The notes beneath the pieces were generated by a model. The model saw only the letters and a list, made by a program, of their open reading frames with translations, ran no database searches and was not told the origin of the DNA. 32,000 nucleotides of DNA, taken from positions 60,001 to 92,000 of the forward strand of contig JBHLRO010000006.1 of NCBI GenBank assembly GCA_048882505.1. The letters are read 5' to 3'. Shown here in pieces: positions 12,061 to 13,790 of the stretch. A program made the position numbers and the translations under genes. Source of the stretch: Candidatus Thorarchaeota archaeon. GTDB taxonomy: Archaea; Asgardarchaeota; Heimdallarchaeia; Hodarchaeales; Hodarchaeaceae. Each line of letters begins with the position of its first letter. Position 1 is the first letter of the stretch.

Positions 12061-12675
12061 TTACAGGTAGAAGCTCAAGATTCCAAACCTCCGATTTTCA
12101 TCGTCTAGGATCTCAGTATATCGTTTCAGGATAGCTACACATATGAAGAGGCCAACCGCTGTTGTGAACACACCAAGGACCTGTGCGATCATAAGCAGCA
12201 CCAGAAAACGTAGACCCCAGGATCTAGCCGATCGTAATTGACTTGATCGGTTATTGGATTTATTGTTGTTAATATGGGAAATCCTGTCAATCATAGAAAA
12301 CCCGATCATTGGCAGCATTATCTGGATATCCGCAATTTCGGGATCCAGCTTGTTTAAGATTTGACGCAGAAAGTAGGTAGAGAAGCCTACGAAGATTAGA
12401 TTATACATAATCCCTCTTGTCAGCCCCGAGAGTGGATTCACGGGACTGATCAATCCCCAATCACCGACCAGTGATTGGGGGGGAGCTAAGAAATAAGCAA
12501 GTCCGCCTACAGGAACATATTGTCCAGATATGGCGTCCCCTCTAAATGTTCCCAACAAATAAACCAGGATATCTGGCGAATTCTGGCCCCCACTTGTAAG
12601 AACATGCCAAACCAGCTGTGCCAGAAATGATAACCCTGAGAACATGACAGAAGTTATAATAACAGGAATAATCAT
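12061..12675 (-). CDS. secY: SecY/Sec61alpha paralog, C-terminal part (TM7-TM10); in frame with 12703..13554 across a single TAG
   Basis: YLMIIPVIITSVMFSGL matches TM7 ([17 protein letters not shown]); GLAYFLAPP matches GLCYYLSPP; IAQVLG..TAVGLFICVAILKRYTEI matches TM9/TM10 (LADFLG..GTGILLAVTIIYQYFEI). Confidence 0.8.
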   Translation of the reverse strand: MIIPVIITSVMFSGLSFLAQLVWHVLTSGGQNSPDILVYLLGTFRGDAISGQYVPVGGLAYFLAPPQSLVGDWGLISPVNPLSGLTRGIMYNLIFVGFSTYFLRQILNKLDPEIADIQIMLPMIGFSMIDRISHINNNKSNNRSSQLRSARSWGLRFLVLLMIAQVLGVFTTAVGLFICVAILKRYTEILDDENRRFGILSFYL

Positions 12676-12702
12676 AAGATAAAGAATATTTCCCTGATAC
12701 TC

Positions 12703-13554
12703 CTAGCTACGGTTCTCTTTTAGTCGGTTCTTGATGGCAATTGTGAACTTGAAAGCACCAAGGTAGTTTAGCAAGAGGAAAAAGATAATAGTAACCAAAA
12801 AAGATAATAATGAATATGCAGGGAGGTTAAGGTTATTTTGGGGATCATATCGAAACAATAATGCCATTATTGCGGCAAACACGTCCTCATGACTGATCCA
12901 GGAAAGAAAGGCGAGTAAAAATCCTCGATTTGATAAAATGCCGCTTTTACCCTCTGAAACTGCTTGGATAGAAAAAAGGTACATGAATAGATCAAGCCCT
13001 ATTGTACTAAGGATAAATAAGGCTATACCAGAGCCATACCCCCAACCTTTGGCTACAACTTCATCTAGGTAGATTGCAATAATCCCCCCTATAATTAATT
13101 GGACAAAGATGCAAAGTTGCGCAGGTAACGGTAGTTTAGTGCCAAAAAATCCGCTGAACGTTACTAAAAGGGCGCCCAGGATTGTGAAAGTGATTGCCAT
13201 ACCTTTTAGGATTGCATTGTAGCTAATTTTTCCTCTTAAGGACTCCAAATCGTTTTCAGCGGTTTTTTTAAACAGGAGAAGTTGCATAACAAGGCCAGCC
13301 AGAAGAATCGGAAATATCCCCAGTGTTCCTATGTATCCCAAAGGCGGAGCATAAATCACCCTGAAGTAAGCAAAGGGATCTGCTTCTCCAACGTTTGCCA
13401 GAATTAATGGTATGGAAATCAAAAGGGAGTACCCTGTAAATGCCATGAATGTCCACAAAAGCTTCTCCTTAGGGGAAAGATCCTGTGAAGGGTGTTTAAC
13501 CGTGGGAAATGTTGTCCCAATCCGTCTGAAAAATTCAAGAAACATCGGTATCAT
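12703..13554 (-). CDS. secY: SecY/Sec61alpha paralog, N-terminal part (TM1-TM6), ending at an internal amber codon
   Basis: P.V..P...LSPKEKLLWT (TM1), ADPFAYFRVIYA (plug), LGIFPILLAGLVMQLL (TM2b), QLIIGGIIAIYLDEVVAKGWGYGSGIALFI (TM4-5). GTGAGG RBS upstream of ATG 13554. Confidence 0.9.
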   Translation of the reverse strand: MIPMFLEFFRRIGTTFPTVKHPSQDLSPKEKLLWTFMAFTGYSLLISIPLILANVGEADPFAYFRVIYAPPLGYIGTLGIFPILLAGLVMQLLLFKKTAENDLESLRGKISYNAILKGMAITFTILGALLVTFSGFFGTKLPLPAQLCIFVQLIIGGIIAIYLDEVVAKGWGYGSGIALFILSTIGLDLFMYLFSIQAVSEGKSGILSNRGFLLAFLSWISHEDVFAAIMALLFRYDPQNNLNLPAYSLLSFLVTIIFFLLLNYLGAFKFTIAIKNRLKENRS

Positions 13555-13589
13555 GTTTTTTCCTCACTAGGATATTTTCGACCGTCATA

Positions 13590-13790
13590 TTACGAAAAAG
13601 ATCTTCCCAGGATAAAAGACACTATCAACCGGACCAAGAATGAGAATAATCCAAAGACCGCAAGTCCAACTGCTGTTTTTTGCACGAGCGTAATAACTTC
13701 TGATTTTGTCGGAGGATTGGAAATTAACAGAGGTTGTGAGTCCTCCCGAAGTGATCTGCGAGATGCCCTCTTCTCCTCTGAGTTTTCCAT
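13590..13790 (-). CDS. secE: SecE/Sec61gamma paralog (66 aa)
   Basis: SNPPTKSEVITLVQKTAVGLAVFGLFSFLVRLIVSFI matches the SecE/Sec61gamma hinge-plus-TM pattern (KP.R.EF..IA..TAIGF...G.IGF.VKLI). ATG 13790; directly upstream of and co-oriented with secY. Confidence 0.75.
   Translation of the reverse strand: MENSEEKRASRRSLREDSQPLLISNPPTKSEVITLVQKTAVGLAVFGLFSFLVRLIVSFILGRSFS

Follow-up and report, generated by a model that had tools for sequence, protein, structure and literature searches.

Introduction

Divergent, non-essential extra copies of the SecY/Sec61alpha channel that exist beside an intact housekeeping copy are known from yeast, as Ssh1p, and from bacteria, as the SecY2 of SecA2/SecY2. 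The gene described here is a copy of this kind: like Ssh1p and SecY2 it is fast-evolving and patchily distributed, and it is even accompanied by its own SecE-like paralog. It differs from both in that it arose by a separate duplication, restricted to one genus of Heimdallarchaeia and the relatives of that genus, in that both ribosome-docking loops of its clade are degenerate, and in that it is itself broken by a stop codon. From SecA2/SecY2 it is further set apart by the absence, to our knowledge, of SecA from archaea.

Channels consisting of two polypeptides cut at a loop, as the locus described here would encode, have been described as engineered yeast Sec61p fragments and as protease-nicked mammalian Sec61alpha (PMC2185549 and PMC8675477). 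According to PMC2185549, which cites Wilkinson 1997, pairs of Sec61p fragments complemented a null allele unless they were split in loop 6 or 7; the same paper states that cleavage of loop 6 abolished translocation and that the nicked fragments stayed associated. Sec61p and SecY fragments do assemble when split at several other loops (PMC2185549, and PMC8675477 citing Wilkinson 1997). In contrast to these constructs, the split described here is natural, it falls in loop 6, i.e. in one of the two loops reported in PMC2185549 not to tolerate it, and its C fragment is a predicted one.

A single in-frame TAG inside a conserved open reading frame is also the mark of the pyrrolysine-encoding methylamine methyltransferase genes. 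The present gene belongs to an unrelated family, its TAG is not kept in the ortholog, and pylTSBCD was not detected in its genome. With ordinary nonsense pseudogenes of redundant paralogs in prokaryotes it has in common that the stop is restricted to a single lineage, that the ortholog keeps a sense codon, that an intact functional copy exists elsewhere and that the genome contains other stop-broken paralogs; it differs from them in showing so far no sign of relaxed selection or secondary lesions, which fits a very young pseudogene without proving it. Here we analyse this locus in a window of 32,000 nucleotides (the whole stretch of DNA under study, to which positions refer), and we favour, as the probable reading, a fresh nonsense pseudogene of a dispensable accessory SecY paralog.

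Results

A SecY reading frame interrupted by a single TAG

Three successive reading frames lie on the minus strand of the window: a 66-codon secE-like gene (13593..13790), which is first in the module and a paralog of canonical SecE/Sec61gamma, an ORF of 283 codons (12706..13554), and an ORF of 204 codons closed by TAA (12061..12675). The second frame is the N half of a SecY/Sec61alpha paralog and comprises TM1-TM6, the plug and the first strand of loop 6/7, while the third is the C half and aligns to TM7-10 of Sec61alpha. The ORFs at 13554..12703 and 12675..12061 share one frame, and the TAG at 12703..12705 (codon 284) is its sole interruption, with no second stop and no frameshift between or within the two SecY halves. 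The uninterrupted frame expected of SecY/Sec61alpha (PF00344) is therefore broken by this TAG, and the ORF coordinates and common frame bear out the first-pass annotation, which had described a single in-frame TAG joining two minus-strand ORFs. Between the TAG and ATG 12675 lie nine in-frame sense codons, EYQGNILYL (12676..12702), which correspond by homology to strand two of loop 6/7 and the beginning of TM7; a fragment begun at ATG 12675 would miss these residues.

The N half by itself matched Pfam PF00344 with 64.1 bits (E 1.9e-17; cut-off 32.2). When the stop was read through, phmmer aligned query residues 4-493 with residues 4-471 of human Sec61alpha1 (8b6l_A; E 8.9e-42) and placed the stop position opposite an Asn, thereby reproducing the gap-free register with Sec61alpha across the stop that had been noted earlier. 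An AlphaFold2 model of the read-through protein, built with 78 homologs, reached a pLDDT of 86.2 and a pTM of 0.88, and its best Foldseek match was the Sec61alpha of 7tm3 (E 1.4e-23, TM 0.78/0.83); the Ssh1 structure 2ww9 was among both the sequence and the fold matches. The model has the ten-TM fold of the family, with a plug helix and two pseudo-symmetric halves. In it, TM6 spans residues 249-266 and TM7 residues 290-319, and loop 6/7 forms a hairpin of strands 269-272 and 286-289 with residue 284, the stop, at its tip. Because residue 284 falls after TM6 and before TM7, the pieces would be TM1-6 and TM7-10, in agreement with the earlier placement of the stop in cytosolic loop 6/7. Met294, whose codon is ATG 12675, lies in the first turn of TM7.

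The TAG allele is found in samples from two studies

The source of the sequence is a metagenome-assembled genome, and a sequencing or assembly error that hides a true sense codon had been among the options raised in the first-pass annotation. The TAG allele was checked on assembled Logan contigs and was found in those of SRR30758835 and SRR20218960, which belong to two studies. A 38-kb contig with a depth of about 29, from what is probably the source run of the genome, encodes the 283-aa product, and its SecY gene is 100% identical to that of the window including the TAG; the SecY gene on a 1.6-kb contig from a 2022 run of the other study is likewise identical including the TAG. Given the same allele in contigs from two studies, an error at this codon is very unlikely.

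The 2022 contig differs from the window at just two positions over 1559 nt, 13604 and 13718, both in the secE-like gene. The differences alter the SecE-like protein (N25Y and R63G, the latter in a conserved LGRSF motif) and may be errors, since the depth there is below 5.

The interrupted gene belongs to a second SecE/SecY pair

The host genome (4.3 Mb, estimated to be 94.5% complete) carries its canonical SecY on another contig (G000:C16), with 220.6 bits, and the window gene ranks second at 66.1 bits. Canonical SecE also lies outside the window contig, at G000:C24:22927-23076. The secE-like 66-aa gene of the window is 31% identical to it (BLASTP, E 1e-13) and scores 20.3 bits against Pfam SecE, just below the cut-off of 22.7. 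As the 66-aa gene is a paralog of canonical SecE, the locus constitutes a second SecE/SecY pair, and the pair is present in a related genome (G061) too, where a 60% identical secE-like copy lies upstream of the SecY ortholog. Thus, the window SecY is a second, divergent, fast-evolving paralog and not the cell's main SecY. The first-pass annotation had the SecY identity right and did not note this status, which alters the meaning of the stop: the broken gene is not the essential SecY.

SecY paralogs were searched for across the class and placed in a tree, in which a long-branch clade of divergent paralogs includes the window gene together with its G061 ortholog. Such divergent paralogs were found in just 5 of the 22 genomes of the genus and in a few metagenome proteins, a patchy distribution that suggests a gene family which is dispensable and turns over rapidly. 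Furthermore, search and tree revealed repeated SecY duplication within this Heimdallarchaeia genus: many of its genomes have two near-canonical copies (e.g. G058:C1:2764866-2766317 and 3222862-3224316), some have divergent copies as well, and G054 has four copies. Our literature search found no paper describing repeated SecY duplication in this genus.

The loops that dock the ribosome are not conserved in the divergent clade. Mean pairwise identity among its members was 18% in loop 6/7 and 15% in loop 8/9, with deletions and without the PGWR motif, compared with mean identities of 90% and 91% for the same loops in the genus's canonical copies.

Several further features of the family and its surroundings were observed. 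Members of a sister paralog clade carry a C-terminal extension (60-70 residues in P0005, P0006, P0007, P0020, P0021, P0024 and P0063; also present in L022, L025, L026 and L057). The last TM segment of this extension, GLGxFxLRFxxFVILGRE, is similar to the TM anchor of SecE (hhalign: 21 columns, E 1.4e-6, probability 90%), and Pfam SecE gave no match on the extension of the P0005-7 clade. Judged by the sequence likeness, the extension may represent a SecY-SecE fusion with matching topology. Another member of the paralog family, on L057, has an in-frame TGA inside TM6 (positions 26-28 of ENA contig NODE_27944, coverage 3.5), about 26 nt from the contig end, which may be a second broken copy of the family or a low-coverage error. 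At the locus of the G061 ortholog (L004 8407-10578), a gene for an STT3/AglB-type oligosaccharyltransferase follows an HTH regulator, two genes past the SecY paralog; in the window this place is taken by a gene for a NosD/beta-helix surface protein, which runs on the opposite strand. Next to canonical SecY on G000:C16, a gene (L001 1-1059, minus strand) showed a weak match to Ribophorin I (E 1.8e-4, below the cut-off), and by this match it could be an OST-subunit-like gene beside the main translocon gene.

The stop is specific to the window lineage

The sole close ortholog, P0002 of G061, has 497 aa, 73% amino acid identity and no interruption, and it aligns over residues 1-497 without gaps, with homology running across the stop. 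The first-pass annotation had proposed to look up the codon of orthologs at this site; in the G061 gene it is TGC (Cys), a sense codon. The codon corresponding to ATG 12675 is CTG (Leu), so the ATG is specific to the window lineage as well. At the loop tip the two orthologs disagree in eight of nine aligned positions (276-284, counting the stop site). A stop at codon 284 occurs in no other family member, all of which are open there; each of them, like the ortholog, is a single ORF, and the split is thus not kept in relatives. Among 5.8 billion protein clusters we found neither an intact near-identical allele nor a stand-alone C half other than that of the window itself.

A sister-run strain is 94-97% identical, and its 253-nt contig ends 12 nt past the TAG, too near for codon 12703-12705 to be judged. 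The fragment has 10 changed codons (4 synonymous, 6 nonsynonymous), which are too few to interpret. A query with the 84-aa fragment for the protein of this strain returned no match, and a scan of JGI metagenomes with the ortholog found no relative.

We then compared selection on the two halves. By the Nei-Gojobori method, the N half gave a dN/dS of 0.23 against the ortholog and the C half one of 0.20, values that average over a dS of about 0.74 since the species split and have almost no power for a recent event. Amino acid changes specific to each lineage, polarised with outgroups, were likewise balanced: the N half has 19:23 (window:ortholog) and the C half 12:13. Neither dN/dS, nor relative rates, nor extra lesions gave a sign of decay of the C half. 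The clean state of both halves and the balanced changes speak against a fresh pseudogene and are equally what would be seen for a working gene in two pieces, since purifying selection looks equal on both sides of the stop. They are also as expected if the mutation is recent: by a rough estimate, a neutral stretch of 640 nt would gain a second disabling lesion after about 1% divergence, and the clean C half therefore shows just that any neutral phase was short. Of the signs by which an ordinary pseudogene was to be recognised in the first-pass annotation, the sense codon in the ortholog and the absence of detected Pyl machinery (see below) were found, while relaxed selection in the 3' half was not. 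The sense codon TGC together with the intact canonical SecY and SecE elsewhere is what a nonsense pseudogene would be expected to show.

Other genes of the genome are broken by in-frame stops

We scanned the genome for in-frame stops that are spanned by a paralog alignment and found 14 such junctions, made up of 6 TAG, 5 TGA and 3 TAA; some of the TGA junctions are merely tandem genes. When same-frame neighbours were sorted by stop type genome-wide, TAG was not in clear excess, and the TAG-broken genes had no common sequence context. One of the broken genes is a citrate synthase paralog (G000:C1:303242-304510, L060), cut by one in-frame TAG at C1:304040-304042 with exact Pfam continuity, positions 1-123 preceding the TAG and 126-356 following it. 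Orthologs of this gene, 59-63% identical, are intact in nine other genomes of the genus, with frames of about 620 aa and one of 407 aa; in G061 the paralog was not found. The 14 junctions and the cut citrate synthase suggest that stop-broken redundant paralogs belong to the normal state of this genome.

No amber-decoding machinery is detected

An open frame across an in-frame TAG, in an archaeon from a group in some of whose lineages Pyl machinery has been reported, would be compatible with insertion of pyrrolysine or another genetically encoded residue at codon 284. The search for pylTSBCD that had been suggested for this option was run. In this 94.5% complete genome the best scores for PylS, PylC and PylD were 27.8, 24.2 and 21.2 bits, far under the cut-offs of 178, 248 and 150, and PylB (cut-off 348) gave no hit, while the same searches detected PylS, PylB, PylC and PylD in Methanosarcina. 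A CUA anticodon was absent from the 39 ARAGORN calls and from the 27 Rfam tRNA hits. Together with the Cys codon of the ortholog, these results effectively refute the pyrrolysine reading.

ARAGORN at lowered thresholds produced hundreds to thousands of false tRNAs, and these runs were discarded. At default settings it called tRNA-SeC at G000:C16:58002-58095 and 65699-65815; both calls read as well or better as intron-bearing tRNA-Ser (AGA and GCT), and because of this fit we make no claim of selenocysteine.

TAG is a common stop in this genome. It closes 593 of 2144 open frames of at least 250 codons and about 26% of long ORFs, and eight other long ORFs of the window end with it, in keeping with the at least eight other TAG-ended genes counted in the first-pass annotation, which had considered genome-wide reassignment of amber unlikely on this ground. 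That judgement holds.

A further way to obtain the whole channel would be leaky reading of the TAG by a near-cognate tRNA, yielding little full-length protein, yet enough for an accessory function. The frame is open and conserved on both sides of the TAG, the variable loop tip, with its eight differences in nine positions, would tolerate almost any residue, and TAG accounts for 6 of the 14 paralog-spanned junctions. However, the searches turned up no suppressor tRNA, folding of the RNA past the TAG gave no structure beyond that of shuffled sequences (z = 0.03) and hence no stimulatory element, and the TAG-broken genes lack a common context, with a TAG excess that is not significant in a genome where TAG is a normal terminator. 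Moreover, we know of no programmed amber readthrough established in archaea apart from pyrrolysine. We therefore regard leaky readthrough as improbable.

Production of the C half and the break in loop 6/7

Production of the C half as a polypeptide of its own would call for a start signal, in the form of a Shine-Dalgarno (SD) sequence, an overlap or a very short gap, and none was found. The 3' end of the 16S rRNA reads ...GGAUCACCUCCU, and SD-like 4-mers peak genome-wide at -13 to -10 before starts. The secE-like gene (AGGT at -12) and the N half (GAGG at -11; 13562..13565, starting 11 nt before ATG 13554 and conserved in the ortholog) have their 4-mers on this peak. In contrast, ATG 12675 has no SD 4-mer between -16 and -5, the nearest GGAG starting at -29. 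The TAGGAG at 12705-12700, which the first-pass annotation had placed 24 nt from ATG 12675, was confirmed at that distance. The gap between stop and ATG measures 27 nt (12702-12676), and a spacing of about 20 nt was enough to make termination-reinitiation almost disappear in H. volcanii and E. coli (PMC10666635). With such a gap and no SD, the C half would probably be expressed inefficiently. An SD is also missing from many other starts of this genome, about 28% of crude starts having one, and this tempers the argument against a separately made C half, and with it the argument for a pseudogene.

The first-pass annotation had regarded loop 6/7 as the place where a break would be best tolerated. 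The yeast data run counter to this, as Sec61p split in loop 6 was non-functional and cleavage there abolished translocation (PMC2185549). These data bear directly on the idea of a working two-piece channel, in which TM1-6 and TM7-10 would be translated from one transcript and assemble with the SecE-like subunit. Several observations would suit such a channel: an ATG peculiar to this lineage that lies nine codons past the stop, where TM7 begins; the lack of further damage in either half; the recurrence of the TAG allele in samples of two studies; the position of the break in a loop that is hypervariable in the paralog clade and has deletions in other members; and the plastic gene architecture of the family, with a possible SecE fusion in the sister clade. 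Assembly of Sec61p and SecY fragments after splits at other loops (PMC2185549 and PMC8675477) provides a precedent. Furthermore, the result for loop 6 of yeast may not transfer to this gene, because loops 6/7 and 8/9 are degenerate in the paralog clade.

Against a two-piece channel stand the 27-nt gap before an ATG without SD and the failure of the Sec61p split at this very loop (PMC2185549). In addition, the split is unique to this population, all relatives including the ortholog having single ORFs; it is not unusual for an ATG to occur by chance within 10 codons of a given position; and a C fragment that begins with Met294 would be without the second strand of the hairpin (286-289) and without TM7 residues 290-293. 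The two-piece SecY of the first-pass annotation is thus weakened by the gap and the yeast result. What leaves it a minor share of probability, of the order of one chance among several, is the combination of a lineage-specific ATG, an undamaged C half and weak constraint on this loop within the paralog clade.

Discussion

Of the options raised for the stop, a recent nonsense mutation fits best, given the sense codon in the ortholog, the intact canonical SecY and SecE and the patchy distribution of the paralog. We propose that a lineage-specific accessory copy of SecY/Sec61alpha, located behind its own SecE-like gene in a Heimdallarchaeia genome, acquired a real nonsense mutation (TAG at codon 284) at the tip of cytosolic loop 6/7, where conservation is low; canonical SecY and SecE are intact on other contigs. 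Translation would most likely end at the TAG and yield at most a TM1-6 fragment, and the TM7-10 part would be made poorly or not at all, presumably in no useful amounts. The paralog would then be a young pseudogene, caught before further damage accumulates, with the recency of the mutation deduced from the clean state of the gene.

Some of the evidence pulls away from a fresh pseudogene, a reading that we consider somewhat better than an even bet. In particular, the C half has a dN/dS as low as that of the N half, an ATG unique to the lineage sits in the first turn of TM7, nine codons past the stop, the TAG allele occurs in samples from two studies, and with loops 6/7 and 8/9 degenerate the outcome of the loop 6 split in yeast may not apply. 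The same points would be accommodated by a natural two-piece channel with a dedicated SecE paralog, an accessory translocon that no longer docks ribosomes via loops 6/7 and 8/9, which we consider unlikely. If it were true, a break in loop 6, lethal for yeast Sec61p, would be tolerated once canonical ribosome docking has been dispensed with, and the locus would serve as a natural experiment on which SecY loops need to be unbroken.

For a fresh pseudogene, the stop is probably a case of ordinary gene death that tells nothing new about the genetic code, and the two ORFs should be annotated as one disrupted gene rather than as two proteins. Biologically, the accessory SecE/SecY module and the family to which it belongs are of greater interest than the stop. 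This genus harbours a divergent SecY clade that has lost both docking loops and is paired with, and possibly fused to, a SecE paralog, and the clade bears on the origin of translocon diversity in the closest archaeal relatives of eukaryotes.
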